Assembly: GCA_977017645.1 (NCBI GenBank)
Contig: OZ360225.1
Coordinates: 190,402,001 to 190,466,000, forward strand
Reading direction: 5' to 3'
Source: Torpedo marmorata
Lineage: Eukaryota
DNA: 64,000 nt
This document shows positions 2,603 through 55,300 of the stretch, one piece after another (the stretch's first letter is position 1; every line of letters begins with the position of its first letter). A program made the position numbers and the translations under genes. The notes under the pieces were generated by a model, which searched no databases, was not told where the DNA came from, and saw only the letters and a list, made by a program, of their open reading frames with translations.

Positions 2603-2633
<31 letters not shown>

Positions 2634-2946
2634 TTCTCTGTGAGCACACCCAGTCCTGGGCAAGATAACTCTTTCAGTACCTGATCCCAGTGTGTACTCC
2701 AAAAGACTTCATCCTTCCTGCTGACCGTCTGCAGTCCAAATGGTCAGTCATGGTCCATAACAATAGCCATAGAGAGAAAGAGAGAGAGAGAAAGCCCAGC
2801 AGGCAGGCGTTTGCTCTCTGCAAGTACTTGATTTAAACTAACCCACCCTCACCAAGCTCGCGCATGCGCAATGCGCTCTTGCGAGTACGATGGCTGCAAT
2901 GCGATTGCAGCGGGTGCAGAGCAGCCGATAGGAGCAGCTGTCTACA
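1817..2946 (-). repeat. 3' LTR of the Gypsy element, interrupted at 1892-2762
   Basis: Matches 8157-8407 once the 871-bp insert is removed. Confidence 0.92.
1892..2762 (-). mobile_element. Solo LTR of the Gmr1-like Gypsy family
   Basis: Homologous to LTRs at 9976-10837 and 62334-62603; 4-bp TSD atag (1888-1891, 2763-2766); the empty site is visible in the 8157 LTR. Confidence 0.92.
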
Positions 2947-3378
2947 TCCCCTTTCTTGAGCGGCCCCTCACATATTACAGTTCAAACCAATTTTAAACAT
3001 TTGCAGACATTGATGAAACAGCCAACCCAGTTCAGTCCTGATATTTCGGGTTGGGTTTACAGATACGCCCAAAGCGTGTTCTGTAGTAGCCCTCTGTGGA
3101 TGTGGAGGCTTGGGGTGCCTCGTCCTGAGAATGTGTATTGTCCATTGTCTCCTTGTTGGTTTCTGGGGGAGTCCCGCCAATCTCAGGCTCGCATTCCAAA
3201 TTCTGGTATACAGTCTCTCTGTGGTTGGCCTGAGATGGGGGTGGCTCCCTTACTGGGAGGATGTGCCGTCTGTTCCTTCTGTACACCCTCCCCTCTGAAC
3301 GAACTAGGTATGATCTGGGTTCCTGGCAGCTCCTTTCGACTATCCCCGTGCGGTCGTAGCCCTGTGGAGTCTGCTTTC

Positions 3379-6058
3379 TTATGACCTACCCTTCTGCCAG
3401 TGGCTCGAGCGGTCGACTTGTTCTATCATAAGCCTCCTGTTCAGCAGCTGGGACTTGACTTCTTGTGGGTCTCTTAGTTGAGTTTCCAGAAGCCTCCTTG
3501 CTACCGGCAGAGTCGTTCTGGTCTGCCTTGACATTAACCGTTGCGCCGGTGAGCCCAGTGTGGTGTCGTGAGGGATGTTCCTCAGGTTTAGCAGGTTAAG
3601 TAACACGTTTGTCTTTTCTTTGTGAGACATCTCCATGAGCTGCTTTGCACTTCTTACAGCTCTCTCAGCCAGCCCGTTTGACTGTGGGTACTCTGGGCTA
3701 CTGGTGATGTGGGTGAAATCCCACACCGTTGCAAAGTCTCTGAATCTCTCGCTGGTGAACTGTCTGCCATTGTCTGATAGCAGAGTGTGAGGTGCCCCAT
3801 GCACCGCAAAGTGACGTTTCAGCTTTGTAATGACTGTGGAGGAGGTCTATCTCAAGCCATCCCGAGTACGAATCAACTAGTACCAAACATTGATCTCCTC
3901 GCCATCCTAAAATGTCTGCGGCCACAGTTGACCAGGGTAGGTCTGGTACGGGGTGGAGCTGTAGTGGCTCTTTCTGTTGGTGTGGCTTAGTGCTGTTGCA
4001 CACCGAGTAAGCCTGCACCCCTTGATGTCTTCTGTCATGCCTGGCCAGAAAACGACGTCCCTCGCCCTTCGTTTGGTCGCCTCCGCGCCTGGGTGTCCTC
4101 TGAGTAGGACATATGCGTTCTGTAGTGAGCTTGGGATTACCGCTCTTTGGCCCTTCATTACGACCCCTTCGCCAATGAGTAGCTTGTCATGGAAGGGAAA
4201 GTAGGGTTGCACGGCTGGTGGCAGGCTGCGCTGTTTGTTCAGCCAGCCGGCCTTGATAAAGGTGCCCAGGGTACTTAGAGTGCCGTCTTCCGCTGTGTGT
4301 TTTCTTAGTTCGTCCAGCCGGGCCGAGCATATATAGGCAACTGTCATCACATCTAAACTGTCTTCTTCTTCGACCTGCTGTACCGTGCATTTTCTGGGGG
4401 CGCGGGATAGCGCATCGGCTAAGTGTATTTCCTTACCGCACTTGTGCACCAGAGTGATGTTGTACTTCTGGAGTCTGAGCATCATTCGCTGTAGTCTCGC
4501 CGGTGCCGCGTGCATTGGTTTGTTCAGTATTGTCACCAAGGGTAGGTGGTCGGTTTCTATGGTAATCAGCGTACCGTAAACGTAATCGTTGAATTTGGAG
4601 CAGCCAAAAACAACTGCCAATAGTTCTTTTTCAATTTGTGCATACCTGGTTTCCACGTCAGTGAGTGACCTTGAGGCGTATGCCATTGGTTTCCCATCTT
4701 GCAGGCATGCTGCACCTAGGCCATACTGCGGGGCATTGCAGGTCAACATCACTGGTCTTCGTACGACGTAGTAGGACAGGACTGGAGGGCACGACATGTG
4801 TCTTTTTAAAGCGTCAAAAGCATTCTGCTGTTGTACGTGCCAAGTCCATTCTACGTCTTTGTGCGTCAGCTGCCTCAGTGGGGCTGTCAGTTCGCTTGAG
4901 TTGGGGATAAACTTGCCCAGGTAGTTTACTATGCCCAGAAATATTTGCAGGGCTGCCACGTCCATTGGCACCGGCATTTCGGTGATGGCCTTTATTTTGG
5001 AAGGGTCCGCCTTCAGGCCTTTGCTCGTGAACACATGGCCTACGTAGCTGACTTGGCCCAGTTGGAACCTGCACTTCCGGGGGTTAAGCCTCAGGTTCAC
5101 TTTTTGTGCTCGGTCGAGAACCTTCTTTAAGTATTCGTCATGTTCGTCTTTAGTTTTTCTGCCCACCAGTATTTCATCGACTATGATGGCGCAGGGGAAC
5201 CCGGCGAAGATTTGCTCCATGGACCTTTGGAATACTTCGCTGGCCGAATTGATCCCAAATGGCATCCGCAGGAACCTGTATCGACCAAACCCAGTGCTGA
5301 ACGTGGTCAGTAGTGATGATTTGTAATCGAGTGAGACTTGGCAGAATGAGTTTTTCGCGTCTGGGACCGAAAATTCCATCGCACTGGCCATTTGTGCAGC
5401 CACTTCTTCTACGGTGCGCATGGGGTGATGTGGTCTCTTCAGGGCGGTGTTGAGGTCTTGCGGGTTTATGCAGATTTGGATTTCTTGTCCGTCTTTCTTC
5501 TTGGCGGCCACCATGGAGGACACCCATTCGGTCGGTTCCGAGACTGGAGTGATTACGACCAAGCCGTGCATTCTGTCCAGCTTGGCCTTGACCTTGTCCT
5601 TCATTGCCACCGGAATGCGGTGTGCCATACGCACCACGGGTCGCACCTCCGGGTCGAGCCGCATGGAGTATGTCACCGGCAGCCTCCCCAGTTCGTCTGT
5701 GAAAAGCTCGCTATATTCGGAAAAAAATTTCTGGGACAAGTCGGCTTATCTGGTGTACCTCCCTGCTGAAAGAGACGAGTCCCATGTCCATGCACGCGCT
5801 CAGGCCAAGCAGCGGCACAACGTCCTCGCAGACTACGAAGAATGCTAGTATGTGTAGCCATCCTTGTACATGGCACCGTAGCCGCACTGTGCCGCTGGTC
5901 TGGATTCTACTGCCTCCGTACGCCACCAGGCTCGTTGGTCTGGTACATGGTTTAACTTGTTCCGCTTTTTTCAGCCGGTTGAATGTCTTCAGTGACATGA
6001 CGTTGCACTTCGCCCCTGTGTCTACCTTCACCTCCGCCACCTTGCCGTTAATTTTCAT
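3379..6058 (-). pseudogene. Gypsy pol: protease, RT, RNase H, integrase (frameshifted)
   Basis: VKVDTGAKCNV protease; RMPFGINSASEVFQ and IVDEIL (degenerate YxDD); ETRYAQIEKELLA RNase H; LSDNGRQF and YPQSNGLAER integrase core. Confidence 0.93.
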
Positions 6059-6061
6059 GGA

Positions 6062-7094
6062 CTAGATCCGGTGACTAGTGGTTGCCTCAGGGATCGGTAC
6101 TGGGTCCATTGTTGTTTTTCATATATATTAATGATCTAGATGATAGGGTGGTAAATTGGATTAGTAAGTATGCAGATGATACGAAGATTGGTGGTGTTGT
6201 GGACAGTGAAGAAGGATATCAAAGCTTGCAGGGGGATATTGGACAGTTAGAAGAGTGGGCGGAAACATGGCAGATGGAATTTAATACTGATAAATGTGAG
6301 GTGCTACATTTTGGTAGGATTAATCAGCAAAGGTAATACATGTTAAATGGTAGACAATTGAGAAGTGCAGTAGAACAGAGGGATTTAGGAATTCTGGTAC
6401 ATAATTCCATGAAAGTTGAGTCACACGTAGATAGAGTGGTGAAGAAATCATTTGGTATGTTGGCCTTCATAAATCAGAGTATTGAATATAGGAGTTGGGA
6501 TGTCATGTTGAAGTTGTATAAGGCATTGGTGAGGCCAAATTTGGAATATTGTGCGCAGTTTTGGTCGCCGAATTATTGGAAGGATATAAACAGAATAGAG
6601 AGAGTGCAGAGGAGATTTACAAGAATGTTGCCTGGGTTTCTGGGTTTGAGTTATAGGGAAAGGTTGAACAGGCTGGGATTTTATTCCCTTGAGCGTAGAA
6701 GGTTGAGGGGTGATTTGATAGAGGTATTTAAAATTATGAAGGGGAAAGATAGAGTTAATGTGGACAGGCTTTTTCCATTGAGAGTGGGGAAGATTCAAAC
6801 AAGAGGGCATGGATTGAGATTGAAGGGGGAAAAGTTTAGAGGAAACATGAGGGGGAATTTCTTAACTCAGAGGGTAGTAGGAGTGTGGAATGAGCTTCCG
6901 GCCGAAGTGGTAGATGCAGGTTGAATTTTAATGTTTAAGGAAAAGTTGGATAGGTATATGGACGAGGGAGGTGTGGAGGGTTATGGGCCGGGTGCGGGTC
7001 AGTGGGACTAGGTGGGAGAATGTGTTCGGCATGGACTAGAAGGGCCGAACTTGCCTGTTTATGTGCTGTAAATGTTATATGGTTATATGGTTAT
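6062..7094 (+). mobile_element. 5'-truncated CR1 LINE inserted at the gag-protease junction
   Basis: [42 protein letters not shown]; (atatggtt)n tail; atgga at both junctions; removal restores EAFVS-MKINGK in frame. Confidence 0.93.
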
Positions 7095-8062
7095 ATGGAT
7101 ACGAATGCCTCGTTGTTTCCTCTGATCCAGTTTTCTGCTGGGTTGTCTGCTGTCCGCGGGGTCAGCCCGTCAACATAGTACTCCTCACCGGGGTTGTCTT
7201 CCTCATGTTCTGGCTCTAGCTGGTTGATCATCCTTCTGGGTCTGGTCCGTGTGTTGGTTTGCTGCCTGGATCTGCAGCATCTGCTGTAGTGGTTCCACTT
7301 CCCGCAGGTCCTACACTGCTGGCCGAACGCCGGGCACCTCTCTTTTCTCGCCACGTGGTCTCCTCCGCAGTTGCCACATCCTGCCCTGGACGGAGGTGTG
7401 GGGTGGCCTGGCTGGCTCTTTCTTCTGGCCTCCAGCCACTGTCTGTTTGCTTGGATCGCGTCGATGCTCGTGGCCTGCTGCTGTGGAGAGGCCAACTTTC
7501 TGCTGTCTTCCTCGGTGGTTTCGTATGCCAGACAGGTATAGATGGCCTTTGCTAGCGTCAATTCGTTGTCGCGCAGGAGCGCCTTCCGCATACCGTCATC
7601 ACGAATGCCACAGACCATTCTGTCTTCAATTAATTCTTCGCAGAGCGTGCTGAAATTACAGGTCTTTGCCCTGATTCTCAAATCGCTGACGTATGAGTTA
7701 ATTCACTCGCCAGGCTTTTGGTTTCTGCAGTTAAATTTGTGCCGCTCCATCATTACATTTCGCTGTGGATTGCACATTTCTCTAAATTTGCATTTTAAAC
7801 ATTCGGGGTCCTCTCTTGACTCAGCCGGGCTGGTAACGAGGTTCCCTTCGCCGCGCACTTCGTCTGCGTATACGAACGCCCTTTCCTGTTCAATGGCTTT
7901 CGGGCCCGCCAAATTCAACAAAATGTATGCTCTCATGCGGGCAGACATGTCGCTGTGCGCTTCCGCAATAAATATGTAATATTCCTGCTCAAAAACGCGC
8001 CCGTTCTCTGCCACATTTCCTTCAAACACGATTGGGTCGGGCCGCCTAAATCTGTCCACCAT
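7095..8062 (-). pseudogene. Gypsy gag (frameshifted) with zinc knuckles
   Basis: ERHKFNCRNQKPGE, DRMVCGIRD, CGNCGGDH...C and CRTCGKWNHYSRCC. Confidence 0.88.
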
Positions 8063-8138
8063 TATGGCGACTGTTACAAACTTGGTTCTGGTTACTCACT
8101 GCGACCGATTGGAAGGCTTCAGGCTTGGGACACTGGCG

Positions 8139-8156
8139 ATCCCATTTCTGACACCA
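8139..8156 (-). promoter_or_regulatory. Primer-binding site, tRNA-Leu type
   Basis: TGGTGTCAGAAATGGGAT immediately inside the 5' LTR. Confidence 0.8.
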
Positions 8157-8407
8157 TGTTGTTCTTTTTGTCGTGCTGAGTAATGAGGCGAGTCGGTAGG
8201 TGATGTTAACCAAACAGTTTACTGAACATAGCCGTAGAGGGAGAGAGAGAGAGAGCCCAGCAGGCGGGCGTCTGCTCTCTGCAAGTACTCAATTTAAACT
8301 AACCCGTCCTCACCGAGCTCGCATATGCACAATGCGCTGTTGCGAGTACGGTGCCTGCAACGCGATTGCAATGGGTGCAGAGCAGCCGATGGGAGCGGCT
8401 GTCTACA
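8157..8407 (-). repeat. 5' LTR of the Gypsy element
   Basis: TG...CA ends, adjacent to PBS, homologous to 1817-2946. Confidence 0.93.
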
Positions 8408-8615
8408 CCACAGTTAACAGACTGCTAAATGAACCCCAAAATCGTAAAATTATGTTGCCTTTGCTCAGTACCAACTGATCTGTCTGTAACTCTGTACTTT
8501 TATACTGTGTCTTACTTTTTGTACAATGTATGGGATGTCTACTGGCCTGCTTGTAAAACAACAATATCTATCACTGCATTTTAATACATGTGACAAGGAA
8601 CTTGAACTTGAGGCT

Positions 8616-8654
8616 GGATGAGGTAAGGATGAGGTAAGGATGAGGTAAGGATGA
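8616..8654. repeat. 11-bp tandem repeat (ggatgaggtaa) x3.5
   Basis: Directly visible. Confidence 0.9.
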
Positions 8655-8884
8655 TAGCTTTTTATCCCTGAAGGACAGCAGTGATTTTTTTTTAAAGTGA
8701 AATTCAAGTAGTTTTCTTGTCACTGTTTCTAAATTTCAAATGCTTCCTTGCGAACCTTTCTGCAAGTGTCAATTTATTTCAAGATCAGTGACCACACTGC
8801 AGTACAACTGCTGCTACTTCACTTGCTTCAAGCTGATATCAGCACACAACTCTGGGCAATAACCACCATAATAAAAAAAAGAAT

Positions 8885-9075
8885 TGTCTGATTCACTGAT
8901 CCCCTTCAGAATAGGAAACCTAGCATCCTTACTTGGTCTGGCCTATATGTGACTTCACACCCTCATGGTTGACTCTAAACTTTTCTCTCAGGTGGCCTAG
9001 AAGTCACTCAGTTCATGCTGTCTGGATGCTGCCGTTATTTGTGATGCCCACACCCTGTGAATGCATAACATTAAA
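8885..9075 (+). mobile_element. Ancient Deu-domain SINE fragment (SacSINE1/AmnSINE1-like)
   Basis: ggaaacctagcatccttacttggtctggcctatatgtgact...ggttgactcta...tggcctagaagtcactcagtt resembles the DeuSINE core as recalled. Confidence 0.6.
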
Positions 9076-9975
9076 TAAAAATAACTGAAATCAGAACACG
9101 GAGGTCAGGTTCAAAGATCATATATCTTGACAATATCTTGAAATCCTGCTGTGATCAGTCCACAAAGCAGCTCTGAAAAAATACAATTTGTACCATTTAC
9201 TGATGACATGATGGTTTGAATGCAGTGTGTCCACTAAATACATTGGTACAACTAATGAAGTTATGTCACCAAACACAATTTTAAAGGACGTCAGGGAGCG
9301 TTAAATTAAAATCCATGCCAGTATTCAAATAATTTACTGTAGAATGTAGACAAAAATAGAGCCATGGTGTCATTGGTCTACTGGAGAGTATAAGGATTGA
9401 CTTTTCTTCAGTCATCTGTTATTGAGGGACATCTTCAGTATAGCCATATACATTTGCTGAAATTTTAAAATATCAATAGTGAAGTTATTTTAGACATTCG
9501 ATTCAGTTTGAAAAAATGTAACTAGGGAATCCGCATATCTATTCTTCAAAGGGAATGCAATATCTAAGATAATAAACAAATTTAAGTCTTGCATCATTTG
9601 ACATGCAGATGCTATAAGTGATGAGAACTATACTCAATTATCTCAGTATGTCCAATCATGAACAGACAGTTCCATTATACAAGAGACTGCCATGGATTTG
9701 GACAATAACCTAAGTGATAAAGTAATATTGTAGAAAATTACTCAGTATTGACAAAAACAGCTCTTAACAAATTTTGGGAGATCAGAGAAGGAATAATTAA
9801 TTACCTTTAAAAAAATTCAATAGATGCATGATATTTACTTATGTATTTCAATGTCTCCATTAAAATAGCTATAAAAGAAATTTCAGAAGATTATATTCAT
9901 AAATAGTAAGCCACAGATCTTTGTTACTAAAACTGAAATTTGACAATAAAAGCAATAAAACAATAAAAAGGCTAT

Positions 9976-10684
9976 TGTTACAGAATCAAACCAGCAACGA
10001 CAGAAGACGCAATGCAAAAGGAGTAAAACTGAAATTATTATTTATTAAACACAAGTAAACATATAATTTCACAACAATTAACCCCACTATAAACGTCTAT
10101 AAACTCTATCCTTATCTAAAAGGTGTATGTGTGTGTGTGTAAAGCCCAGACCATTACAGTCTGTGCCCAACCCTTATGAAAAAAATGGAAAAACTTTCCT
10201 CAAAAACCCCAGGTCAGTCATAAAACAACAAGTCAGTCAAAAAAAAGATAAACAGTCCACAAATTTACTCTCTAAGTTCAGGCTTCAACTTTTCCTCTGG
10301 GTCTGGTAGAAGTACTTCTGAATGAACGTTGGAGAGAGACAAATGACTGATTATGCTTACAAATACTTGTTTTCTTCTCTGATGACGTCCCCTTCTTGTA
10401 GGTTCATAAGGATTGCAAGTTCCAGATCAGTACACCACTGATTTAGGCGTATGCTTGAATCTCACAGCTAGTCTCGCTGATCTCACGCCTGTTCTCCACA
10501 GAAGTTGCTTTTCTCAGAATTTTTCTCTGAGACAGGAGGCCATGTGCTATTTTGCCAGATTTTCTCTGACTGCACACACCCCTGGATCTGGCTCTTCTCT
10601 GTAGCCTTTGCAACTCACAACTGTCTGCTTTGCAGAGATCTGCCCCTGCTTTTTGCAAAAGTGCAACAATGTATCTATTCCACA

Positions 10685-10716
<32 letters not shown>

Positions 10717-12415
10717 GGGTACACCAAGTCCTGGGGAAGTTAACTTTTTCAGTACCTGGCCCCAGTGTATACTCCAAAAGAATTCATCCTTCCTGCTGAC
10801 CGTCCGCAGTCCAAATGGTCAGTCATGGTCCATAACACTTCCCTCCCTCAAAGGAAATTTTGGTCTGCATGAACAAAATTTAGGAAAGTAAGTGAGGTGT
10901 CAGAATATAAACAAAATCTACAATGTTTATCCACAAATACAAAATATGAACTATTTTCATTAATAAAGTTTAACATCTAGAAAGACAATCAGCAATTACA
11001 TTATCTCTCCCTTTTATATGAGTGATTACCAAATTATATTCTTGCAAAATTAGACTCCAATTCAACAACCGTCGATTCTTATTTTTCATTTTACAAAGAA
11101 AAACCAATGGATTATGGTCAGTATACACTATGAGTGGTTTTTGAGCTGTACAGATATACACATCAAAATGTTGTAGAGCCAATACAAGAGCCAACAACTC
11201 TTTCTCTATAGTTGAATAATTCCTTTGCTGATCATTGAACTTCTTTGAGAAGTAGGATACCGGATGTTCAATGTCCTCTTCGTTCTTCTTCTGTAACAGC
11301 ACCGCACCCACAGCTTCATCGCTCGCATCCACGGCTAAAGAAAACGACTGTTCTAAATTAGGTGACTTAAGCACAGGTTGGTGGCATAACATGGCTTTCA
11401 ATTTGACAAATGCTTCCTGACAACCTGTAGACCATACAAATTTCTCTTTCTTTCTAAGCAAATTTGTGAGAGGGAGCGCAAGATCAGCAAAGTTTTTACA
11501 GAACTTGCGGTAGTAGCCAATCATTCCCAGGAACCTCCTCAGAGTTTTCTTACCAGTTGGAACAGGGAACTCGGAAATAGCGACAACCTTTGCCTCTACT
11601 GGCGCCAACTTCCCCTGTCCTACAACATAACTCCAAGAATTAACAGTCCCATGACCCTCTCTGAAACTGGTTTTATCTGTCTCCTCCTTACCCCTGTCAA
11701 TAACCAGTACCTCTGGTAAATTTTCAGTCCCTTTGTGAGGCACCTGTTCAAAATATGGCTTAATCATATTCACATGACAGACCTGTGTGTCTCGTCTGCG
11801 ATTAGGTGTTTCTATGACATAGGTGACCTCATTAATTTTTGACTTAACTCTATAGGGTCCTGAAAATCTAGCCCTAAGAGGATTTGAATGGATGGGAAAC
11901 AGAACTAATACGTTCTCACCAGGTTTAAAAGTTCTCATCTTCGCCTTTCGATCATACCAAACCTTCATTTTCTGTTGAGTGGCCTTTAAATTCTCCTTTG
12001 CCATCTCACAAGCCCTATGTAACCGATCCTTAAATTTGGAAACATAATCTAACAGATTTAAATGCACATCACGATTAATCCACTGTTCTTTTAATAATCT
12101 TAAAGGACCTCTCACCTCATGTCCGAAAACTAACTCAAATGGACTAAAACCAAGCGAATCTTGGACAGACTCCCTCGCTGCAAATAACAACAAATGAACC
12201 CCCTCATCCACTTTCTCATCAACACCCCATCTTTTTCATAATACCCTACTGGCACCTTTTTAATCTCTTCTTCAGAGAGAACCTTATCCCTCACCTCAGC
12301 AAGATCCGGATCGTCTTTTTGCCTTGCTATTAACTCCTGTCGGGATAGTGACAAATCTGTGCCTTTAGGTGTCTTATCAGTGGATGGGCGTAACATAGGA
12401 GATTGCTCAACCTTT
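9976..12415 (-). mobile_element. 3' part of a Gmr1-like Gypsy element with internal deletions
   Basis: 3' LTR 9976-10837, PPT 10838-10850, integrase C-terminal part upstream of RT end and RNase H. Confidence 0.9.
10970..12415 (-). pseudogene. Gmr1-like pol remnant (INT C-term, RT C-term, RNase H)
   Basis: LLFAARESVQDSLGFSPFELVFG and FSGPY (INT), RRFLGMIGYYRKF, LAVDASD, YSTIEKELLAL, KGRDNVIADCLSR; INT core and RT core missing. Confidence 0.88.
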
Positions 12416-38198: not shown

Positions 38199-41100
38199 TG
38201 TAGCGGCTATATTTACCTGATATACACATAATCATAAGAATACACTCACTCGTTCAACAGTACAAATGGAGGCGACCACCTTTATTCCTCTCAGCCATAA
38301 CAATGAAATCTTCATTCCACCAAACACCACCCAGCCAAAACCCCCGACCTTCTCATTGGCTCTCTGCCACACGGGTGATCTCGACTCTCTCAATCTCCTC
38401 CTCCTGCGTCCGAGATCCATCACAGTGTATGAAGCCAACTGATATGACACGTGCATGCGCGCTACTACTACCACTCGTCGCCCCTGATACATCATCCGCG
38501 GTGACCAGCACCGCTCCCAACGCAGGTAAGTATACGACCACGACAGCCATGCAAGGAAGCAACTGATTAGAACTGTCCCACTACGTAATGGTCTGGAGCG
38601 CTGACAGTCCAGCCCAACCGCATACGATACTGCATGGTGAGCGATGTATGCTCCAACTGGCAGGGTGCAATTGTTCCTTCGACGTTAACAGCAACGCAGA
38701 ATACGGACCATCGATAAACACCGCCTTCAATCTGTCAATGGAGACCGTGTCAGTTTTCCCATTTCTGCGAATCACAAAACTCTTCGGGTGGCATTGTGTA
38801 ACCTCAAAAGGTCCGTCGTAAATGGGCTGAAGTGGTTTGCGAACAACGTCATGTCAAAGGAACACATGCGTACAGCGTTGTAAATCATCTGGTACATACA
38901 CTGCAGGTGATGCATGTCGCGTTGGTGTTGGTCTGAGCAACCGCATGCTTTCCTGAAGAGGGTTGACATAACTCGCTGGATCATAGAGGGCTGTACCCAG
39001 ACCTGGATTCACAAACTCGCCGGGCAGTGTCAGCATGGTGCCATTTACCATTTCTGCTGCTGAATATCCAAGATCCGCTTTTACAGCAGTACGTACGCCA
39101 AGGAGAACCATGGGCAAATGTTCACTCCACAGAGATGCATTGCCACCTGCTGTCAATGCTGCTTTCAATTGGCGGTGGAAATGCTCAACGAAGCTGTTGG
39201 CCTGCGGATGGTAAGCCGTGGTCCGAATGCGGGTGGTGCCCAAAAGATCAGTGAGAGCTCGGAACAACGCCGACTCGAACTGAGACCCTCAGTCCATTGA
39301 CGGAACCCAGCGATTAACAAAAGCCCGAGCGATGGTCTCCGCAGAGATGCAGTGACAGGAATGGCCTCCTGCCACCTGCTAGCCCGGTCCTCACATGTGA
39401 ACAGATAAGTGTATCCTCTGGATGGCAGAAGCGAACCCACCAAATCCATGTGCACGTGATGGAAACGGGAATCTGGAACAGCGAAATCTCCCAGCATGGA
39501 TTTTGTGTGACTGGAGACTTTAGAGCTTTGACACGGCAAGCAGGTTCTTGCCCATAATCCAACATCCCACTTAACGTGAGGCCAGGTAAAGCGTCCGTAA
39601 TCAGTTTGATCGATGCTCTTCTACCAGGATGAGACAGTTATGAAGAGCCTCGAAAATCCCTTGCCGCATTGCCGCTGGCACAAAAGGTCTAGGTCTCCCT
39701 GTGGAAAAGTCACAAACCAGTGATTCACCCGATTTATCCAGGCACACATCTTGTAGACGGAGATCTGTGTTGATCCGGCGATACTGGACGAGATTGGGAT
39801 CAGTGTGTTGTGCACGAGCCATGGCAGTGAAATCGATGGTAGGCGTCATATGTAAGGCCTCAATGTCGCGCATGGACAGGGCATCGGCCACGGCATTCGC
39901 CTTCCCTCAGATGTGCCGTATGTCCGAGGAAAATTGCAAGATGAAGTCCAAGTAGTAGTGTGTGCTGCCTCAATGACTACCGCCCAGTAGCACTAACTTC
40001 TACTGTGATGAAATGCTTTGAGAGGCTGGTCATGGCCAGAATTAACACATACCTAAGCAAAGATCTGTACCCACTGCAATTCGCCTATCGTCACAATCGC
40101 TCCACAGCAGATGCAATATCGCTGGCTCTCCACTCAGCTCTGGATCACCTCGAAAACAGCAATTCATACATACGGCTGCTCTTCATCGACTACAGCTCGG
40201 CCTTCAATACCATTATTCCCTCAGTGCTGGTCAAGAAGCTACAAACTCTAGGCCTCTGTACCCACCTCTGCAACTGGATCCTTGACTTTCTCATCAGAAG
40301 ACCACAGTCAGTACGAATTGGAAACAATGTCTCCTCCTCACTGATTATCAACACAGGCGCACCCCAAGGATGCGTGCTTAGTCCACTGCTCTACTCGTTA
40401 TACACCCATGACTGTGGGGCCAGGCACAATTCCAATGCCATCTACAAGTTTGCCGATGACACCACAGTTGTCGACAGAATCACAAACAGCAATGAGGAAG
40501 CGTACAGGAGGGAGATAGATCAGCTCGTTAAATGGTGTAATGACAACAACCTTGAGCTCAACGTCAGCAAAACCAAGGAGATGATTGTGGACATCAGGAG
40601 GAAGTCAGGGGAACACGACCCAGTCCTCATCGAGGGCTCAGTAGTGGAGAGGGTCAAGAACTTCAAATTCCTGGGTGTCACCATCTCCGAGGATCTGTCC
40701 TGGAGCATCCACGTTGATGCAATCACAAAGAAAGCTCGTCAGCGGCTATACTTTGTGAGGTGTCTGCGGAGATTCAGTATGTCACCGAAGACTCTCGTAA
40801 ACTTCTACAGGTGTACCGTGGAGAGCATTCTGGCTGGTTGCATGACTGCCTGGTATGGAGGCGCCAACTCCCAGGACAAGAGTAAACTCCAGAGGGTTGT
40901 TAACTCAGCCTGTGACATCACAGGCACCAAACTTCACTCCATCGAGGACATCTACATGAGGCGGTGTCTTAGAAAAGCAGCCTCTATCCTCAAAGACCCC
41001 CACCACCCAGGCCATGCCCTCTTCACTCTGCTTCCATCGGGAAAAAGGTACAGGAGCCTAAAGACGAGCACTCAACGGCACAAGGACAGCTTCTTCCCCG

Positions 41101-42787
41101 CTGCCATCAGATTCCTGAATAATCAATGAACCAAAGACACTGCCTTACTTTTCGTGCACTATTGTTTATAATTTTTTATAGTAATGTCGTAAGATGGTTA
41201 ATATGAATGTTAATTGCACTATGATGCTGCCGCAAAACACCGAATTTCGTGACTTGTTCATGACAATAAATTCTGATTCTGATTCTGATTCTGATTCTGA
41301 AGTGCCGAATTTCCCGTGGCGAGTAGAAATGCACGCTTGTATGTGCGGTATGCGTAAGAGACTGGTGGTCAGTATAAATGGGTAAAGGGCTACCTTCCAA
41401 TAAAAATCTGAAATGCTTCACTACGAGATATATGGCTAGGAGTTCTCGCCCGAATGTGCTATATTTTGCCTGAGCCGGTGACAGCTTGGCTGAAAAGGAC
41501 GACAGAGGTTCCAACTTCGCAACAACTCTTTGTTTTAACACCGCTCCTACGGCACTGACAGAGGCATCTGTGGTAAGAGAGAGCAAGGCGTTTGGCTTTT
41601 GGTGCACAAGCATCGTGGCATTCGCGAGCGCAGTTTTCACATCATTGAAGGCATGAACGGCATCATCTCCCAAACTCAATGGTCTTTTCGAAGTGGACAT
41701 ATTGGATCCTTTAAGTTGTTCGGTAAGGGGTAAGAGAGTCGCTGCTGCATTCGGCAGGAAATGGCGGTAGAAATTCATCAAATCTAAAAAACACTGTAAC
41801 TGGCCAAACGTAACTGATGTAGGAAAATCTCAAATTTTTTGCACTTTTGTTTCATCAGGCAATATACCGTGCCTGGTAACTCTATGTCCTAAAAATATAA
41901 GTTCAGCAGCACCGAAAATGCTTTTATTCGAATTGATCACAATGCCAAATTTATCAAGTTTCTGGAACAGTGATATAAGATGGTGCTTGTGTTCCTCTTC
42001 ATCCACGCTCGTTACAAGAATATCATCGATATAGATATATACAAAATCGAGGCCGCAGAGTACGTGGTCCGTAAACTGCTGGAATGTCTGAGCTGCATTC
42101 CGCAGACCGAATGGCATTCGAAGAAACTCAAACGTGCCGAAAGGAGTAATTACTGCTCTCTTGGCAACATCGGAAGGCTCCACCAGAATCTGATAGTAAG
42201 CACGCACCAGGTCTATTTTTGCAAATACACGTTTGCCGTGCAGGTTTGCTGAGAGATCCTGCAAATTGGGAATGTTGTATCGGTCAGGAATGGTGGAATT
42301 GCTGAGCGCACGATAATCACCACAAGGCCGCCAATCCCCAGGAGACTTCTTTGGAACCATATGCAATGGCGATGCCCAGCAGCTGTCAGATCTGCGAACT
42401 ATCCCCAGCTCCTGTGTGTAGCTGAATTCCGCTTTTGCGATTTTAAGATGATCCGGGGGTAATCTACGAGCCCGCGCTGCAACCAGAGGATCCCGGGTCT
42501 CTTTGTGGTGGGTTACTGCATGTTTAATGTCCCCATGGCGATACGATGGGGTTACTAGGTGAGGGAAATGCTTGAACAATGCTGGGAAAGGGCAGGAGCT
42601 AGGTTGGAGGCTCATCAGGCAGGTGACAACATTGGAGGGATGACAAATGCAGCCAACTTGCATACAAGTGCTGCGGTCCACAACACAGTGATGAACGAGT
42701 GAGTGTATTATTTTGATTATGTGTATGTCGGGTAAATTATAGCTGCTACAAGTGGTGACCCCAACGCAGGTAAGTATGCGACCGCGA
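38199..42787 (-). mobile_element. Decayed Gypsy element: 3' LTR, INT, RH, RT; gag and protease lost; 5' LTR end plus PBS inverted
   Basis: LTR 38199 to about 38519; TTAYHPQAN, DTVSIDRLK, YSTFGRELLA, WRPCGDYRAL, YIDDILV; 42694-42787 is the LTR end plus TGGTGACCCCAACG (tRNA-Trp-type PBS) on the + strand. Confidence 0.88.
39954..41299 (+). mobile_element. Young 5'-truncated Rex1 LINE with open RT frame (39960-41129)
   Basis: [35 protein letters not shown]; (gattct)n tail; aagt at both junctions; removal restores REIRH-LDFILQF. Confidence 0.93.
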
Positions 42788-42870
42788 AAAGTCTTCCCTC
42801 CATTAATGACATCTTTAAGAGGCAGTGCTTCAAGAAAGCAGCCTCTATCAAGGACTCTCACCACCCAGGC

Positions 42871-43445
42871 CTTCTCTACATCGGAGAGACTGGATGAGGA
42901 CTGGGAGATCACTTCGCTGAGCACCTTTGCTCTGTCCGCATCAGTGACAGGGATCTCCCAGTGGTTAACCATTTCAATTCTGCAGCACTCCCACACTGAC
43001 ATGAATGTCCATGGCCTCATGTACTGTCAAACCAAGACCACCCGTAAATTGGGGGAGCAACACCTAATTTTCTGGGCACTCTCCAACCGGATGGCATTAA
43101 CTTTGACTTCTCCGGTTTCTGCGAGCCTACTCCCTGTTCTCCCTCCCTTCCCATTCCCTCTGTCTTCTTTCCTCCATCTCTCTGCCCCCTTCTCTCTCCA
43201 TTCAGAGAGCCTTCCCCCTCCCCTTGTTTGCTGGTGTGCCCTCTCTCCTTTATCCACCTATAACCTCCTGCCTGTGGGACTGTGCACCTCCCTCTGTCCC
43301 TCCCCCCCCCCCCATCTCTTTGTTTGGGCAACTGCCGATATTTTTCTCATACCTTGATGAAGGGCTCAAGCCCAAAATGTTGGTTATGTACCTTTATCTT
43401 TGCTATATGAAGTACACTGTTTGACCTGCCGAGTTTCTCCAGCAT
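42871..43445 (+). mobile_element. Penelope 3' fragment with hammerhead motif at 43348-43388
   Basis: ctctacatcggagagac (LYIGET), ggagatcacttcgctgagcac, cataccttgatgaagggctcaagcccaaaatgttggttatg. Confidence 0.85.
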
Positions 43446-45055: not shown

Positions 45056-45228
45056 AAGAGATTGACAAGAATTCTGCTTGGATTAGATTGTTTTCTCTGG
45101 CGTGTCGGAGGCTGAAGGAAGACCTGACAGAAATTTATAAAATTATGGGAGGAAAAGAAAGGGTAGAATCTTTTTTCTAAATGTAAGAGTGTCACATACC
45201 AGAAGGCATGCATTTAAAGTGAGAGGGG

Positions 45229-48200
45229 TGTGGTAAACCACTGTAAATACCTGTATATATGTTTATGGTCGTATGGACACGCCCCTTGCTGGCTGTATCT
45301 GTGGCTCCTCCCACAGACCCCTGAATAAAGGCTATTGTGCCACAGCTCCCTCCCCAGTCCAGTACAGATGACCACCAGGAATGTGCATCCATTCCAATGT
45401 GAATAAAAGCCTATCAGTTCTTGCTTAACTTCTAGCCTTTCAGAGTTATTGATGGTGCATCAATTTTATTCACATTGTTTTCGATAATGTATCAATACCT
45501 GAAACCTGAAAAGTTGGAGCTAGTCCCTCAATCACCCGAGGCATCCAACGGTTTTGAACACTGACTGCGTTGTTTCGAGGCATTCTTGAGGGCCTCTGCT
45601 ACTGTCGTTCAATCTGAGGACGACAAACTACAATTGCTACATTCCTGGTTCGGGCCCCAGGTGTACTCGATGATCAGGAACACTGAATCTTACCGGGAGG
45701 CCATGGACATGCTAAAAGGCCAGTACCTGAAGAAGGTAAATGAAGTCTAAACGACGCCATCTTCCCAACTCAGCAGCGCCGCGTGCGAACCATGGGGGCC
45801 GCCATCTTGGACGGAGCCATCTTGGACACCCAAACACCGCATCACCCCTACAGAACCCGACAGCAACTCAGTACTGGCCTCCATCACACTAGATCAAGGG
45901 AGTCCCCATCAACTGGCCAGATCGATGATGGACATTGAGGTGGATGCCACAAGACGAGCTGCCTCTTCGATAGTGGGAGCACGGAGAGTTTTATACACCC
46001 CGACATGGTGCAGCGTTACCGCCTCGCCGTAATGCCAGTAAGCCATAAAGTGTCCATGGCTTCCAAGTCCCACACAGCAGAGATACACGGTTACTGTGTA
46101 GTGACCCTGGCTGTGCTGGGCACAGAGTATGAATTTTTAAATTACTTGTCATGATACAGCTTTACGCGGAAGTGCTACTGGGGCTAGACTTCCAATGTCA
46201 CCTTAAAAGCGTGACGTTGGAGTACGATGGGCCCCATCCCCCCTTACCGTCTGTAATCCGCAGTTTGTAAACCGCCCATAGCAACTCACCCACAGAAGCT
46301 CCCCGGTTTCCCCTCCCATCGTGTCCAAACAGCGACCCACCGATTGCCCACCGTGCGCGCCTGCGGCCTTTCTACCCTCCGGATCACCCCCCCCCCACCG
46401 CTGTTCGCTAACCTTACCCCCAACTGCAAACCCATGGCCACCAAAAGTAGGCATTACAGTGCCGGGGACAGGGCCTTTATCAGGTTGGAAGTGCAGCGGC
46501 TGTTGAAGGAGGGGATTATTGAAGCCAGCATCAGCCCCTGGAGAGCCCAAGTGGTGGTGATAAAGAATGGGGAGAAGAAAAGGATGGTCATCGATTATAG
46601 TCAGACTATCAACCGTTATACGCAGCTGGACGCGTACCCCCTCCCCCGCATAGCCGACATGGTAAACCAATACCGGGTGTTCTCCACCATCGACTTAAAG
46701 TCGGCATACCACCAACTCCCCATCCGACCGGAGGACCGCCAATACACTGCCTTCGAGGCAGATGGCCGCCTATATCATTTCCTGAGGGTTCCCTTTGGTG
46801 TCACCAACGGGGTCTCGGTCTTCCAGCGGGAGATGGACCATATGGTTGACCAGCATGGGCTACAGGTCACATTCCCGTATGTGGATAATATCACCATTTG
46901 CGGCCATGACCGACAGGATCATGAAGCCAACCTCCAGAAATTCCTCCAGACCGCCAAGCTCCTCAACCTTACTTATAATAAGGATAAATGCATCTTTGGC
47001 ACAACACGCCTGGCTATCCTTGGCTGCGTCGTACAGGATGGAGTAATTGGCCCAGATCCAGACCGCATGTGCCCCCTGTTGGAACTCCCCCTTCCCCACA
47101 GCCTCAAAGCCCTGAAAACGTGCCTGGGCTTCTTTTCCTATTATGCCCAGTGGGTCCCCAATTATGCGGACAAGGCCCGCCCCCTCGTCAAATCCACCTC
47201 TTTTCCCCTGACGCCAAGGCTGCGATGCACGCTGTGGACGAATCCACCTCGTTCCAGGTGGAGAGCGATGCGTCCGCCTTCGCCCTGGCCACCACCCTCA
47301 ACCAAGCGGGCAGACCCGTAGCTTTCTTTTCCCGCACCCTCCAGGGCCCAGAAATCCGACACTCCTCTGTCGAGAAAGAGGCCCAAGCCATTGTCAAGGC
47401 GGTGCGGCACTGGAGGCACTACCTCGCCGGAAAACGATTCACCTTGTTAACTGACCAACGTTCGGTTGCGTTTATGTTCAATAACCAACAGCGAGGTAAA
47501 ATTAAGAATGACAAGATTCTGAGGTGGAGAATCGAACTTTCCACTTACAATTACGATATCTTGTAACGGCCCGGTAAATTCAATGAGCCCCCCGATGCCC
47601 TTTCCCGCGGAACATGTGCCAGCGCACAAATAGACCGCCTACAAGCCCTACACAGCGACCTCTGCCACCCCGGGGTCACCAGATTCTTCCATTTCATAAA
47701 AGCCCGCAACCTACCTTACTCCATCGAGGAGGTCAGGACCATGACCAGGAACTGGCAGATCTGTGCGGAGTGCAAACCGCACTTCTACCAACCAGACAGA
47801 GCACACCTGATAAAACCCACCCGCCACTTCGAACGCCTGAGCGTCGACTTCAAGGGACCACTTCCTTCCTCTGACCGCAACGTGTACTTCCTCAACATTA
47901 TTGATTTCCCCTGACTAGATCTACTAGACAAGGATGCCCTTTGTCACCAGCATTGTTTACTTTAGCGATAGAACCTTTGGCAGAATTAATTAGAAAAGAT
48001 GTTAAAATTGTAGGTATTAAAGTTGGAACGGAAGAACATAAAATTTGTTTATTTGCAGATGATGTATTGATATATATGACAAAACCTATTACATCTTTAG
48101 TACAATTGCCTGCTTTATTGAGAGAATATGGGGAAATATCTGGATATAAGATTAATTCTGATAAAAGTGAAATTATGGCATTAACGCAAGGGGATTATAG

Positions 48201-51153
48201 TAAATGTAAAGAAATTACACAATTGAAATGGTTAAAAGAAGGAATTAAATATTTGGGAATAAAAATTGATACAAAATTGTCTAATTTATATAAATTAAAT
48301 TATTTACCATTATTTATGAAAATTAAAAAAGGTTTAGAAAATTGGAAAGATTTACCTATAACTTTAATGGGAAGGGTAAATTGTATTAAAATGAATGTTT
48401 TTCCAAGAATTCAATATCTTTTTCAATCAATTCCTTATGAAATTCCTCAAAAATTTTTTAAAGATTTAAATTCAATTATTAGGACGTTTTTATGGAAAGG
48501 AAAGTTGGCAAGGGTAGGTATAGAAAAATTAACTTGGAATTATGAAATGGGTGGTTTACAACTTCCTAATTTTCACAATTATTATAAAGCAGCTCAATTA
48601 AAATTTGTTAATGAATTTTTTGATTTAACTAAATCTTCTGCTTGGATTAGAATAGAATTAAATAATATAGGACAAGATTCTAAAGAAGAAGTTATTTATA
48701 AGTGGGATTCTAAATTAATATCAACAAGAAGAAAAAATTCTCCTATTCTTAAACATTTGTTAGAAATAGGGAACAAGACGGATAAGGAAATAGGAGGAAA
48801 AGGATTGATTTCTCCAAAGATGCCTTTATATCAAAATGAACCTATTCCATTTACTATTAATAATCAATTATTTAAAATTTGGTTTCAAAAGGGAATTAAG
48901 AAAATAAATGACTGTTTTGAAGCTGGTAAATTTATTACTTTTCAAAGAATGAAAGATAAATTCAATATATTGGATAATACACTTTTTGCTTATTATCAAA
49001 TTAGAGCATTTTTGGTTGGGAAATTAGGTTATAGTTTGATCTTACCAAGACAGAATGAATTAGAATTATTAGTTACTAAAGGAGATGTAAATAAATTTAT
49101 TTCTCAAATGTATAGACTGTTTCAGAGAAAAATTCCTAAAATAGGAATTCATAAATCAAGATTAAAGTGGGAATTAGATTTGAATGTAACAATAGAAGAA
49201 AATCATTGGAAAGAATTATGTAAATTAAGTATGACGAAGATTATTAATGTTAGATATAGATTAGTACAATACAATTTTTTTCATCAGTTATATTTAACAC
49301 CTAAAAAATTAAAGAAATTTAATCCAACATTATCAGGTTTATGTTTTAGATGTAATAAAGAGGAAGGTTCTTTCGTACATTCTACATGTTTTTGTCCAAA
49401 AGTTTATGATTTTTGGTTGAAAGTTAAAAAATTTTTAGATAAAGTGTTAAAGATCACATTCCCAATGGATCCTATGATATTTTTGTTTGGAGATATTAAA
49501 AAAGTTAGTATTAAGATGAAATTAAATATGTATCAAATAGAATTTTTACGAATTGCTTTAGCTGTTTCTAAGAAATGCATTGCTATTACATGGAAATCTG
49601 ATGTAGATTTAGGGTTAGAAAGATGGCATGCAGAACTTCGTTCATGTATACCACTTGAAAAAATTACTTATAATTTACGTAATAAGTATCATTTATTTTT
49701 TAAAATTTGGAGCCCATATATGAAAGCTGTCGATTTAAGGATTTGAAGATCTCTGGACATCGGATCTACTGGCGAACCTGACCTCCATAATAGGATTAGT
49801 TTATAGATTTAATTTTTAGATTGACATTCTCCTTACTCTATCTTTTTCTTTCTTTTCTTTTATTTTTATTTTTATATTTTTTATTTTATTAGATTAGTAG
49901 GGATGGGAGGGTTAGGGAGGGGAGGGTGGGGGGGGGTGAAAATGTATCACAAGTATTTTGATAATTTTATATTTTACCTTATGTATTTTGTGATTTAAAA
50001 TTTTAAATAAAATATTTTAAAAAAAACATTATTGATGAGTACTCACGTTTCCCGTTCGCCATCCCCTGCCCGGACATGACCACGGCCACAGTCATCAAGG
50101 TCCTACGCAAACTTTTCACTCTGTTCGGGTACCCCTGCTATATCCATAGCGATCGGGGGTCCTCTTTTATGAGCGATGAACTGCGTCAGTATCTGCTGGC
50201 CAGAGGCATCGCCACGAGTAGGACCACCAGTTATAACCCCCGAGAGAATGGGCAGGTGGAGAGGGAGAATGCTACCATTTGGAAGGCCACCCTCCTAGCC
50301 CTAAGGTCGAGAGGTCTTCCAGTCTCCCGCTGGCAAGAGGTACTCCCCGAGGTACTCCATTCAATCAGATCACTCTTGTCCACAGCACATGAGAGAATGT
50401 TTTCCTTTCCTAGGAAGTCTGCTTCAGGGACCATGTTACTGTCCTGGCTGATATCCCCAGGGCCGGTCCTACTCCGGAGGCATGCGAGGAGCCATAAGCA
50501 TGACCAACTGGTCGAAAGGGTCAATCTCCTCCACGCCAACCCCCAATACGCCTACGTGACGTAGCCTGATGGGCGGGAGGACACGGTGTCTGTTCGGGAC
50601 TTGGCGTCCTCAGGAGTCCCTGACACCACTGACGACTGCCCTGCCCCCTCCCCATCTACCGCCACCCAAAATGCACCGTTACCATGGCAAGTGACCCCTG
50701 CTCCGGGGGATGGCTTGCCAGATCCTTCGCCGCCACGCATCCACCAAGATAGGGCCAACAACAACACACAGGTGGCACAATCAGGACTGGATGCAACAGC
50801 TGCGCCGCAGACGGTTCTACGACAGTCGCAGCGGCAGACCAGACCACCTGAAAGACTGAATCTGTAAGAACTTTAATTCACTTCAACCCGCAGGACTCTT
50901 TTTAAAAAGGAGGAGTGAATGTGGTAAACCACTGTAAATACCTGTATATATGTTTATGGTCGTCTGGACACTCCCCTTACTGGCTGTACCTGTGGCTCCT
51001 CCCACAGACCCCTGAATAAAGGCTATTGTGCCACAGCTCCCTCCCCAGTCCAGCACAGACGACCACCAGGAATGTGCATCCATTCCAATGTGAATAACAG
51101 CCTATCAGTTCTTGCTTAACTTCTAGTCTTTCGGAGTTATTGATGGTGCATTG
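45229..51153 (+). mobile_element. Gypsy element with 234-bp LTRs, partly deleted gag, decayed pol and a nested L1
   Basis: LTRs 45229-45462 and 50920-51153; gggg TSD; PPT 50904-50919; CLFDSGSTESF protease; DLKSAYHQ, YVDNI; SSVEKEAQA; IHSDRGSSF, NGQVER. Confidence 0.93.
47906..50024 (+). mobile_element. 5'-truncated L1-clade LINE (RT to 3'UTR) in the Gypsy integrase
   Basis: Open 601-aa frame with FADDVL and CFRC...H...CP; A-tail; 12-bp TSD aacattattgat (47894-47905, 50025-50036); same family as 12416-16539. Confidence 0.95.
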
Positions 51154-51479
51154 GGGGGGAATGTTCAAATAAGATGTGTGGGGAGTGGTGGGTGCCTGGA
51201 ACAGGCTACCAAGGGAGTGGTGGAAGCAGATATGAAAGCAGCATGAAACAGGCTACTAAAGGTAAAGGTAAAGGTTCCATTATTGTCACGTAGATAGGCA
51301 CGTGAATATCCAGGGAATGGAGGGATGGGTATAGATCACGCGCTCAGTTCAGGCGTCTTGTTCAAAAGGTCTATTCCTGCATTGCACAGTTCTACATTAC
51401 ATGTTCTATGTACTCCACTTTCTAAAAACCCACTTGATTAATTAACGTGCTTCAGGGAAGAAAATCAGTCAATCTTTTT

Positions 51480-52323: not shown

Positions 52324-55300
52324 TTTGATTCTTGGACAGACTCCCTCACTGCAAATAAAAGCAAATGAACCCCTTCACCCCAATCCTTTTCACTCTCAAA
52401 ACAATAAGTTCTCATCATGATTTTCAGGGTCGAATGGAACCTCTACAAGGCCCCTTGACTCTCTGGATGGTATGCAGAAGATACAATCTGCTTAACTCTC
52501 AATCCATAAACCACTTGTTGGAATAAGTTGACATAAAATTACTCCCTTGATCTGACTGAATTTTTTAGGCAGGCCAACCAAGGTGAAAAACTTTAACAAA
52601 GCCTTCACAATTGCCTTTGCTTTAATGTTTCTCAGAGGAATGGCCTCCAGAAACCTTGTGGCTGCACACATAATTGTCAACAAATACTGATTCCCAGCTT
52701 TGGTTTTGGGAAATGGGCCAACACAGTCCACAATCACTTTCAAGAAAGGCTCACCGAAAGCAGGGATAGGTTGTAAGGGTGCCACCGGGGACCCTGATTA
52801 GGTTTACCCACCACCTGACAAGTGTGACAGGCCCGGCAAAGCTTACAACATCCTTTCTTAAACTAGGCCAATAAAATTGTTTCATTGTCTTATCCATAGT
52901 TTTCTTCACCCCAAGGTGACCGCCAAAGGGTGTGCTATGAGCCAAAGTTATTATTTCATCCCTATAGGCTTTAGGGAATACAACCTGCTGCCCTACTGCT
53001 CAATCTTCACTGGCAGGAACATCATGTGGTCTCCACTTCCTCATCAATAATCCATCTTTGACATAATAACCCATTGGCTCTTTATTAATCTCCTCGTCAG
53101 AGAGAGCCTTATCTCTCACCTCAGAAAGATCAGGATCCTCATTTTGCCTTGCTATCAACTCCTTTCTGGATAGCGACAAATCTGTACCCTTAGGTTTACT
53201 ATCAGTGCTTGGGTCTAATAAAGAAGATTGCTCAACCTTTACCAGGTCTTTTCCACTTGAATGATGTTTTTGATTATCACAGCCTTTATTTTCCATTAAA
53301 TCATTTTTCACAGCCTTATCTGCATTGACATTTTTTTTAGACATTGCCCTTGTCATAGCACAAGCTGAGTAAATATCAGAGTCCCTCTCTGACTCATCAA
53401 TGACTGGCTTAGCTGTCATTCGCACTGCAGGAACAACCTTACTCTCTGCCAAGTCATTGCCTAGCAACAGTGAGACTCCTTCCACTGGCAAATTTGACCT
53501 CACTCCTATTGTAATAGGTCCATTAACCAGGACTGATTTTAACACTATTCTGCGCAAAGGAATGGGCTCAGTATTACCCCTGATACCTCTAATCAAATTT
53601 ATTTCACCGGTGTCAGTTTCTTCACCAAATTCCAAAACACTGTCTAACACAAGTGACTGAGCAGCCCCAGTATCTCACAAAATTTTCACTGGCACTTGTT
53701 TTAACCCTTTTTTAACTGAAACCAAACCCTCAGTCACAAAAGGTTTGAATACTTCCCTAATTTTATCAGTAAATTTGGATCCTTCTTGGTTTTTATACCT
53801 CTTCTCACTTTAAATACAAGCATTCGGTGCTACCTCTTTTACTCTCTTCTTTTTCAGCACAGGACAACTTGCTATCACGTGACCAGCCTTCTTACAGTAG
53901 TGGCAAAGAGGACCCGAAGGTTTTTCCTTTACCAACTTCCATTCATCTTTACCCCTAATACTACTTCCAAATTTACTCTCCACCTTATTTAGATTATCCA
54001 CAGTGCACTTTTGAAAAAAATTTGCCAGACGTCCACTTAGGCTTATGTGTTAAAGCATATTCATCTGCTAACTTAGTTGACTCCTGCCAAGTTTTCATCT
54101 CCTTCTCATCCAAGTATGCTTCAATATCATCAGGAACACATCTTTTAATCTCCTCAATTATTATCAATTCTCTCAATCGAATATAATCATTGTTTACAGT
54201 CTTCGATGTGCACCACCGGTCAAAACACACAACCTTCTCATAAGCAAAATCTGTATAAGATTGGGTTGTTGATTTTTAAAAATTCCTGAACTTCTGTCTG
54301 TAAGCCTCTGGAACTAACTCATAAGCCTGGAGTATAGCTTTTTTCACAATTTCATAATTAGCAGCTTGCTCTGTGGTAATGGCAGAATAAGCTTGTTGAG
54401 CTTTCCCTTTAATTACACTTTGTAACATAAGAGACCATTGGTTTTGTGGCCAATTTAAATTCACAGCCATTTTTTCAAAATGCTGAAAATATTTATCTAT
54501 CTCAACTTCCTCAAATGGAGGAACCAACCTAACTTCTCTACTGGCCATAAACCCCTCACCATGACCAAGAATTTGATCTCGGTCTCTTCTTTTCTCCTTT
54601 CATTTTCCAGTCTAATCTTTTCCAGCTCATGTAGTCTAATTTTCTCCTCTGCCTCTAGTTCTAATATCCTCAGTTCTATTTACAATCTCTTTTGTATTTC
54701 GGCTGTCTCCAATTTTAATCTCTTCTGTTTCTCAGCTGCATCCAATTCTAATCTCTTTAATTCCAATTGTATTTTCTCAGGCGTTTTACCCTTGGGAAAC
54801 TGCTCTAACACTTACCTTCGTCTATGTAGTATTTTACAATTTTCCTCCCAATCTCCACCTTTGTCAGTTGTGGTTCTACTGAAGCAAATAGTCACTAACT
54901 CGTGCTTTTTAGCCTTTTTCAAATTCTCAAGAAAGGATAATGCCAAAAATCCCTCTATATCCATGGCTGCTGGTTTGTTGCTGTTGATTTCACACACACA
55001 TTAGTTTTTAATTATCTTTACCAAAGGAATTTCCTAGACCAGACTGGAATTCCATCAATCACCAAGCTCCATCTTAATTCAGACTCAGACGATTGATCCC
55101 TAATCAATCAACCTCTAAACTCCCAAATTTGTTCAGATCCCGGATGACGATCCCCCACTTTGTTCAAGATTCAAGATTCAAGATTCAATTTATTGTCACA
55201 GCAATACGACAGTGTCATATACCACGAAATTTCTTTTTGCCTGCTCCAAGGCAGACAGATTCGCCATCGGCAGAAACTGCCTAGGCGCCTCTAACATTCC

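Follow-up and report, generated by a model that had tools for sequence, protein, structure and literature searches.

The window, a stretch of 64,000 nt from Torpedo marmorata, harbours a Ty3/Gypsy LTR retrotransposon at 45229-51153, recognizable by its TG...CA LTRs, its polypurine tract (PPT), its target-site duplication (TSD) and the order gag-PR-RT-RNase H-IN (Table 1). It is a dead, decayed Gypsy copy without a chromodomain: codon 26 of gag is a stop, about 550 nt are deleted, the reading frame is shifted in places and an L1-type element has inserted into the integrase. The 5' and 3' LTRs differ at 11 of 234 sites, one of which lies inside the 3' AATAAA. The last two bases of the 3' LTR (51152-51153) are TG instead of the family's CA, a pair of neighbouring changes equivalent to a two-base inversion; the reverse of this terminal change was seen at a left end in another copy (L420). 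An AT-rich L1 tail like that of the LINE in the window also adjoins other copies of the clade (L192, L392). Three further decayed Gypsy elements, all on the minus strand and distant from this clade, occupy 1889-10837, 38854-43026 (which we take to be CsRN1-like) and 52492-55004 (presumably Gmr1-like).

Table 1. Features of the Gypsy element and its flanks, in positions of the window
Feature	Position	Strand	Basis or remark
Left target-site copy AGGGG	45224-45228	+	Right copy GGGGG at 51154-51158; 4/5 match
5' LTR, 234 nt, TG...CA	45229-45462	+	LTR comparison within the window
Upstream AATAAA, second hexamer in the 5' LTR	45324-45329	+	Sequence; also kept in sister family B
Initiator-like CCATTCC directly before the arm (putative role)	45389-45395	+	Sequence
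Arm 1, predicted self-primer; AATAAA at 45402-45407; predicted cut 45408/45409	45395-45408	+	Complementarity
Inner helix (45409-45416 with 45450-45458), predicted to stack directly on the primer helix	45409-45458	+	RNA fold
Spacer, single A; predicted first templated base	45463	+	A in 20/20 families with pairing
Arm 2 = PBS position, exact complement of arm 1, no TGG	45464-45477	+	Complementarity
Gag start; deletion near 45750	45487-45750	+	ORF/homology
End of protease, then RT, RNase H and the start of integrase; with frameshifts	46139-47905	+	Homology
L1-type LINE insertion, 12-nt target duplication, splits integrase	47906-50024	+	Homology
Rest of integrase, no chromodomain	50025-50867	+	Homology/domain search
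Polypurine tract	50904-50919	+	Sequence, family alignment
3' LTR; arm reads AATAAC, end reads TG; no PBS after it	50920-51153	+	LTR comparison

The inverted repeat at the 5' LTR and its clade

The original prediction had placed, one base after the 5' LTR, an exact 14-nt reverse complement of an LTR segment containing AATAAA, and had noted that no TGG-type PBS is present. All three statements proved correct. It had mentioned neither the second AATAAA at 45324-45329 nor the dead state of the copy. The segments 45395-45408 and 45464-45477 are 100% complementary over 14 nt and lie 55 nt apart, the PBS position is separated from the LTR by A45463 alone, and it begins with TTT instead of TGG. The LTR end at 45462 had been set without use of the pairing and is independently supported by the family, 26 of 30 3'-LTR copies of which end in ...CATCA. 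By chance, a complement of 14 nt would occur somewhere in the 234-nt LTR with a probability of about 8e-7. Folding of the RNA between 45380 and 45500 gave -27.9 kcal/mol (z = -3.96), a value that none of 200 shuffles equalled. Furthermore, all 14 pairs were intact at 26 of 29 scored 5' junctions of the family, a biased sample consisting of the copies closest to that in the window. A search of 45150-45600 against Rfam returned no match, and ARAGORN detected no tRNA in the window.

The family to which the element belongs is abundant, with 2879 first-look candidates in the 6.2-Gb genome. Named relatives of its Gag were found in sharks and rays, Trichinella, Nematostella, molluscs and crustaceans, and those of RT-RNase H additionally in flatworms and moths; the hosts of the clade are animals, from cnidarians to cartilaginous fish. 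Among the viral contigs searched, no relatives of the clade appeared, and a search of the ESM Atlas returned eukaryote Gag clusters only, none of them named. One unbroken relative (L073) contains a single ORF of 1177 aa. Relatives with both LTRs measure about 4.0-4.2 kb and are flanked by 5-bp target duplications, as read by eye. The chromodomain PF00385 was absent at E 0.1 from the integrase end of the window element, from L061 and from the 1177-aa polyprotein of L073; none was listed among 120 relatives, and a PDB search with the C-terminus gave no match at E 10. The same genome gave 15 chromodomain matches, none of which adjoined pol sequence, and there was no sushi-like element among them. 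Judged by this chromodomain test, the window element appears not to be a Tf1/sushi chromovirus. Its RT found its best PDB match in Ty3 RT. The clade RT, with 120 bits against Ty3 RT, was no closer to Ty3 than an unrelated Gypsy element of the window, with 123.5 bits; these figures serve as a proxy only. In an RT tree of the clade and two outgroups from the window, the clade formed one group.

Covariation across and within families

A set of 165 loci was compiled, to which the window's family contributed 30, metagenome contigs 75 and two gag searches of the genome 60. After removal of 11 loci without a gag start and of L026 and L183, the remaining 152 fell into 27 gag clusters. For 20 of these, among them 16 of the 23 metagenome clusters and all four from the genome of the window, the best copy showed unbroken pairing over 12-18 bp, with the first pair located precisely one base past a CA. 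Only 4 of 380 cross-family pairs reached 10 bp, all from two pairs of families with a shared arm, as did 4 of 2700 shuffles. The original prediction had named covariation among relatives as a test and loss of complementarity as an outcome that would speak against it. The complementarity was not lost: the pairing is clade-wide, and the 20 paired clusters maintain it with different sequences.

The helix is strict in composition and in position. When G-U pairs were admitted and each family was represented by its first qualifying copy, Watson-Crick pairs filled 230 of the 231 cells at positions 1-11 (21 families), and three or four pair types occur at each of positions 5-12. In none of the 20 families does pairing extend to the two positions before the PBS. 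No PBS of a paired family starts with TGG (0/20), the spacer after the LTR is A in all of them, and the arm is followed by R-C in 20/20. At its 3' end the arm carries AATAAA in seven families, ATTAAA in nine and AGTAAA in one, and three families have no hexamer; in L068, ATTAAA lies outside the arm. A helix starting right after the arm was present in 13 of 20 families, versus 130 of 600 shuffled loops. Among the seven clusters below threshold, three had little upstream sequence, three had one or two breaks in a layout as in the paired families (L109, L117, L130), and one had nothing. A member of the clade, L074, has a TGG one base after a CA and 80 nt before gag, on a contig that cuts both LTR ends; this member may be tRNA-primed.

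The closest families illustrate the pattern. Family A (that of the window) and families B and C have most of the LTR in common, including the initiator-like CCATTCC, whereas the seven bases that follow it, just before AATAAAA, differ; each PBS matches the seven variable arm bases of its own family. Since the PBS follows each family's own LTR, priming by a half-tRNA or tRNA fragment appears unlikely. In one locus (L171) the LTR resembles that of families A/B and the RT groups with family D, and this element is probably a recombinant with its own matched arm and PBS. Counted from the 3' end of the arm, position 10 is G in 18 of 20 families and position 11 is A in 16 of 20, after a T-rich run; these bases may act as an initiator or be recognized by a protein. 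A primer of 11 nt, beginning at the conserved A11-G10, was not adopted because position 12 is paired in 20/20 families with four pair types.

Within a single genome, the pairing could be followed in family B, a sister family whose arm varies between C and T at one site and whose PBS varies between G and A at another. Across the genome, the arm/PBS combinations numbered 1548 for C/G, 1867 for T/A, 60 for the T/G wobble and 50 for the C/A mismatch, giving a linkage of r2 0.88. Discordant copies (3.1%) were in line with decay after insertion. Wobble copies, which an RNA helix should tolerate, were not in excess over mismatch copies (p = 0.39). A sample of 120 concordant copies was drawn from those listed first on contig C1, 60 of each type. 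In this sample, the PBS allele was unlinked to sites 29 nt before it (r2 0.04) and 13 nt after it (r2 0.05), and these two sites were linked to each other with r2 0.81. All four three-site types were common, with 39, 28, 26 and 17 copies. In family B, the PBS allele thus goes with a site 71 nt away rather than with the sites next to it. On a tree built without the two sites, T/A occurred in two lineages, of 17 and 41 copies, and required three changes compared with 40 in shuffles, the tree being a quick one with weak inner support. The double change has therefore arisen at least twice, by mutation or recombination, without an amplified intermediate. Such a coupled switch would be what recopying of the PBS from the primer predicts; the alternative is strong selection on the RNA helix, which can also produce tight covariation. 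An allele that follows a distant site rather than its neighbours provides a test for primer recopying that needs sequence only and is usable on other families.

The hexamer in most arms invites another explanation, namely that the helix serves to hide the 5' poly(A) signal and that priming is left to something else, e.g. a tRNA fragment binding elsewhere. The masking helix could then be likened to the 5' poly(A) hairpin of retroviruses. Such a role would suit the 17 of 20 arms that end in AATAAA, ATTAAA or AGTAAA, the fact that the helix can form at the 5' LTR only, and a transcript start upstream of the arm, which is possible. It would require neither the fixed register one base after the LTR nor the near-exclusion of G-U (1 of 231), however, and the wobble class of family B should not then be as scarce as the mismatch class. 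Moreover, pairing is perfect in the three of 20 families without a hexamer, L068 has its ATTAAA outside the arm, and no other primer site is evident, gag starting 10 nt after the PBS. We consider this explanation unlikely. Because three families keep the helix without the hexamer, masking is not the reason for the helix; as a side effect rather than the main job, hiding of the 5' copy of the signal, the second role that the original prediction had given to the helix, is plausible, if still somewhat short of even odds.

Fold-back junctions

Genomic copies also contain junctions in which U3 and the arm are joined to a reversed LTR end. A search with this pattern returned 56 matches, versus one for the control, and 13 of them have the arm of the window element. 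In 53 of the 56, exactly one T follows the arm, the complement of the spacer A, and 53 of 55 examined junctions were derived from the family. The reversed copy extends over 11-60 nt and in many cases leads back to the forward strand or into gag-pol; 21 fold-backs reach or come near the LTR start, and in one the loop is cleanly inverted. A PPT precedes four of the fold-backs, which places these four at a 3' LTR, where genomic DNA is normally without a PBS. The reciprocal junction gave five matches. Symmetric switching at an inverted repeat would be expected to give both junction types equally; the tenfold asymmetry is rough, because the reciprocal search used a slightly longer pattern and failed to detect at least one known case (L423). 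A scripted search of 32 full-length fold-backs, in only five of which the left terminus was located, found no exact 5-bp TSD.

These junctions show that arm and PBS pair in some intermediate and that an end at the arm can be extended in the register in which the minus strand would be initiated. As proof of normal priming they do not suffice, since template switching at any inverted repeat can yield such junctions. In three loci (L391, L416, L417) the PBS is followed by 6-9 reversed U3 bases and then by a jump into gag, which replaces the normal leader; a plus strand that continued for a few bases beyond the primer helix may have left these traces.

That fold-back errors do happen at the repeat might also be taken to mean that the inverted repeat itself is a functionless by-product, generated when errors of reverse transcription or replication copy the LTR into the PBS position. 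This idea appears largely refuted by the conserved register, which is kept in 20 families whose RTs differ widely and which have no other primer site, and we regard it as highly improbable.

A more specific question is whether the arm acts as primer in trans or with a long leader, supplied by short 5' or solo-LTR transcripts, or by the 3' end of a second packaged genome, and trimmed to the arm end. The fold-backs do have U3 joined ahead of the arm, four of them with a PPT, and in five of 55 the U3-side stretch breaks off 38-41 nt upstream of the arm, close to the initiator-like site at 45356. At least three of these five stops run on into other element sequence, however, and look like template switching; the use of these stops as a map of the start site was rejected as unproven. 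The 56 junctions also stand against 3525 normal ones counted for family B alone, and the pairing ends sharply at 12-18 nt, so that we would give a primer in trans or with a long leader little chance.

Proposed priming and comparison with known systems

Taken together, we favour a Tf1-like self-priming of the element from its own RNA, with the PBS probably recopied from the primer in each cycle, and assign this reading a probability of about 0.75. Self-priming as put forward in the original prediction is well supported by the covariation, the Watson-Crick strictness, the coupled switches and the fold-backs; the cut that it placed after AAUAAAA we only infer. In the proposed cycle, the transcript would begin at or shortly before the arm, which would pair with the PBS, as is possible at the 5' LTR only. 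The RNase H of the element would cut right after ...AAUAAAA (45408/45409), at the junction with the second, stacked helix. RT would extend the cut end, copying the spacer A, the CA of the LTR and U5 back to the cut, and would then transfer to the 3' end of the RNA, where a short segment separates the cut position from the poly(A) site. The primer would stay attached and plus-strand synthesis would copy it into a new PBS; arm and PBS would therefore be re-matched in each cycle.

For the predicted cut, the RNase H of the element, the enzyme that makes it in Tf1 (PMC7175516), is a likelier agent than the poly(A) machinery. The window element includes an RNase H domain with putative cleavage activity, and the poly(A) machinery cuts 10-30 nt downstream of an unpaired hexamer. 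Three candidate transcript starts were noted in the window, at 45395, 45391 and 45356; the last would provide the primer with a 39-nt unpaired leader and would be a poor fit to copying of the primer into the PBS. Across families, no TATA box was found at a fixed distance before the arm. The upstream AATAAA is possibly TATA-like, lying 32 nt before the initiator-like CCAGTCC (45354-45360), and on the self-priming model it must be inactive as a poly(A) signal. LINE-processed, polyadenylated copies, which were sought to map the poly(A) site, numbered zero. Three small-share runs of RNA contigs yielded neither transcript starts or ends nor poly(A) tails.

If self-priming is true, a second and very widespread animal lineage would have dispensed with tRNA, and tRNA independence would have arisen more than once in Gypsy elements. 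The clade would presumably also be out of reach of control through tRNA fragments. The pairing rule may aid the annotation of many "PBS-less" animal Gypsy elements. Our most far-reaching proposal remains tentative, and we would sooner bet against it than for it in its entirety: a large, animal-wide Gypsy clade would have evolved self-priming independently of Tf1/sushi with a poly(A)-signal segment as primer, one helix would both stop premature polyadenylation in the 5' LTR and start reverse transcription, recopying of the PBS would let the pair drift freely and yet match perfectly, and the genome would hold dozens of fossil priming intermediates.

Our literature search, with Repbase, GyDB and subscription journals outside its coverage, brought up no earlier account of a non-chromovirus animal Gypsy clade that primes itself. 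Named animal clades of this kind include Cigr-1, MolGy1-16, Mag and CsRN1 (PMC6238403), and the clade described here probably corresponds to one of these names because relatives occur in molluscs; PMC6238403 contains no mention of a PBS. Self-priming is known by experiment from fission-yeast Tf1 only, and has been predicted for chromovirus relatives and some plant copia elements. Among plant elements, predictions concern the chromovirus Tcn1 and the Ty1/copia elements TAR, Houba and Osr-1, for which PMC6317226 required a complementary run of 10 bp or more that begins 0-5 bp downstream of the LTR. Self-priming outside Tf1/sushi has therefore been proposed before. Our clade resembles these elements in that self-priming is predicted by an equal complementarity criterion and differs from them in lineage and host; an overlap with the poly(A) signal is not mentioned for the plant elements in the available part of that source.

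The closest system is that of the Tf1/sushi chromoviruses, with Tf1/Tf2 of Schizosaccharomyces pombe and Tj1 of S. japonicus (PMC7175516, PMC4600332, PMC5341516, PMC11042837, bioRxiv 10.1101/2022.12.06.519325). As described in these sources, Tf1 uses an 11-base primer released by an RNase H cut (PMC7175516), PBS sequence is present on cDNA 3' ends (PMC11042837), primer retention is indicated by a title cited in PMC6317226, and the RNA adopts a three-duplex "pretzel" (bioRxiv 10.1101/2022.12.06.519325). In tests for side duplexes at z < -2, one of 20 families of our clade was positive on the downstream side and two of 20, including that of the window, on the upstream side; by these folds, the three-duplex pretzel is not general in the clade. 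Tandem copies sharing one LTR were observed at L052, G000:C22:17643025-17655627, G000:C1:217408135-217412423 and L073, recognized by copies about 4.1-4.2 kb apart or by a 3' LTR followed directly by a PBS; that at L073 may be an assembly collapse. Tf1 tandems of a similar kind are attributed to integrase-independent insertion at PBS homology in PMC11042837.

Like Tf1/sushi, our clade lacks a tRNA PBS, its 5' LTR is closely followed by a sequence complementary to a short segment within the LTR, its domain order is that of Ty3/Gypsy, and an extra helix adjoins the primer duplex. Unlike Tf1/sushi, it lacks a chromodomain, its primer helix measures 12-18 bp compared with 11 in Tf1, the arm usually ends in a poly(A) hexamer followed by R-C, and its hosts are animals, ranging from cnidarians to cartilaginous fish. 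The mechanism of Tf1 has been established by experiment, whereas that of our clade is inferred.
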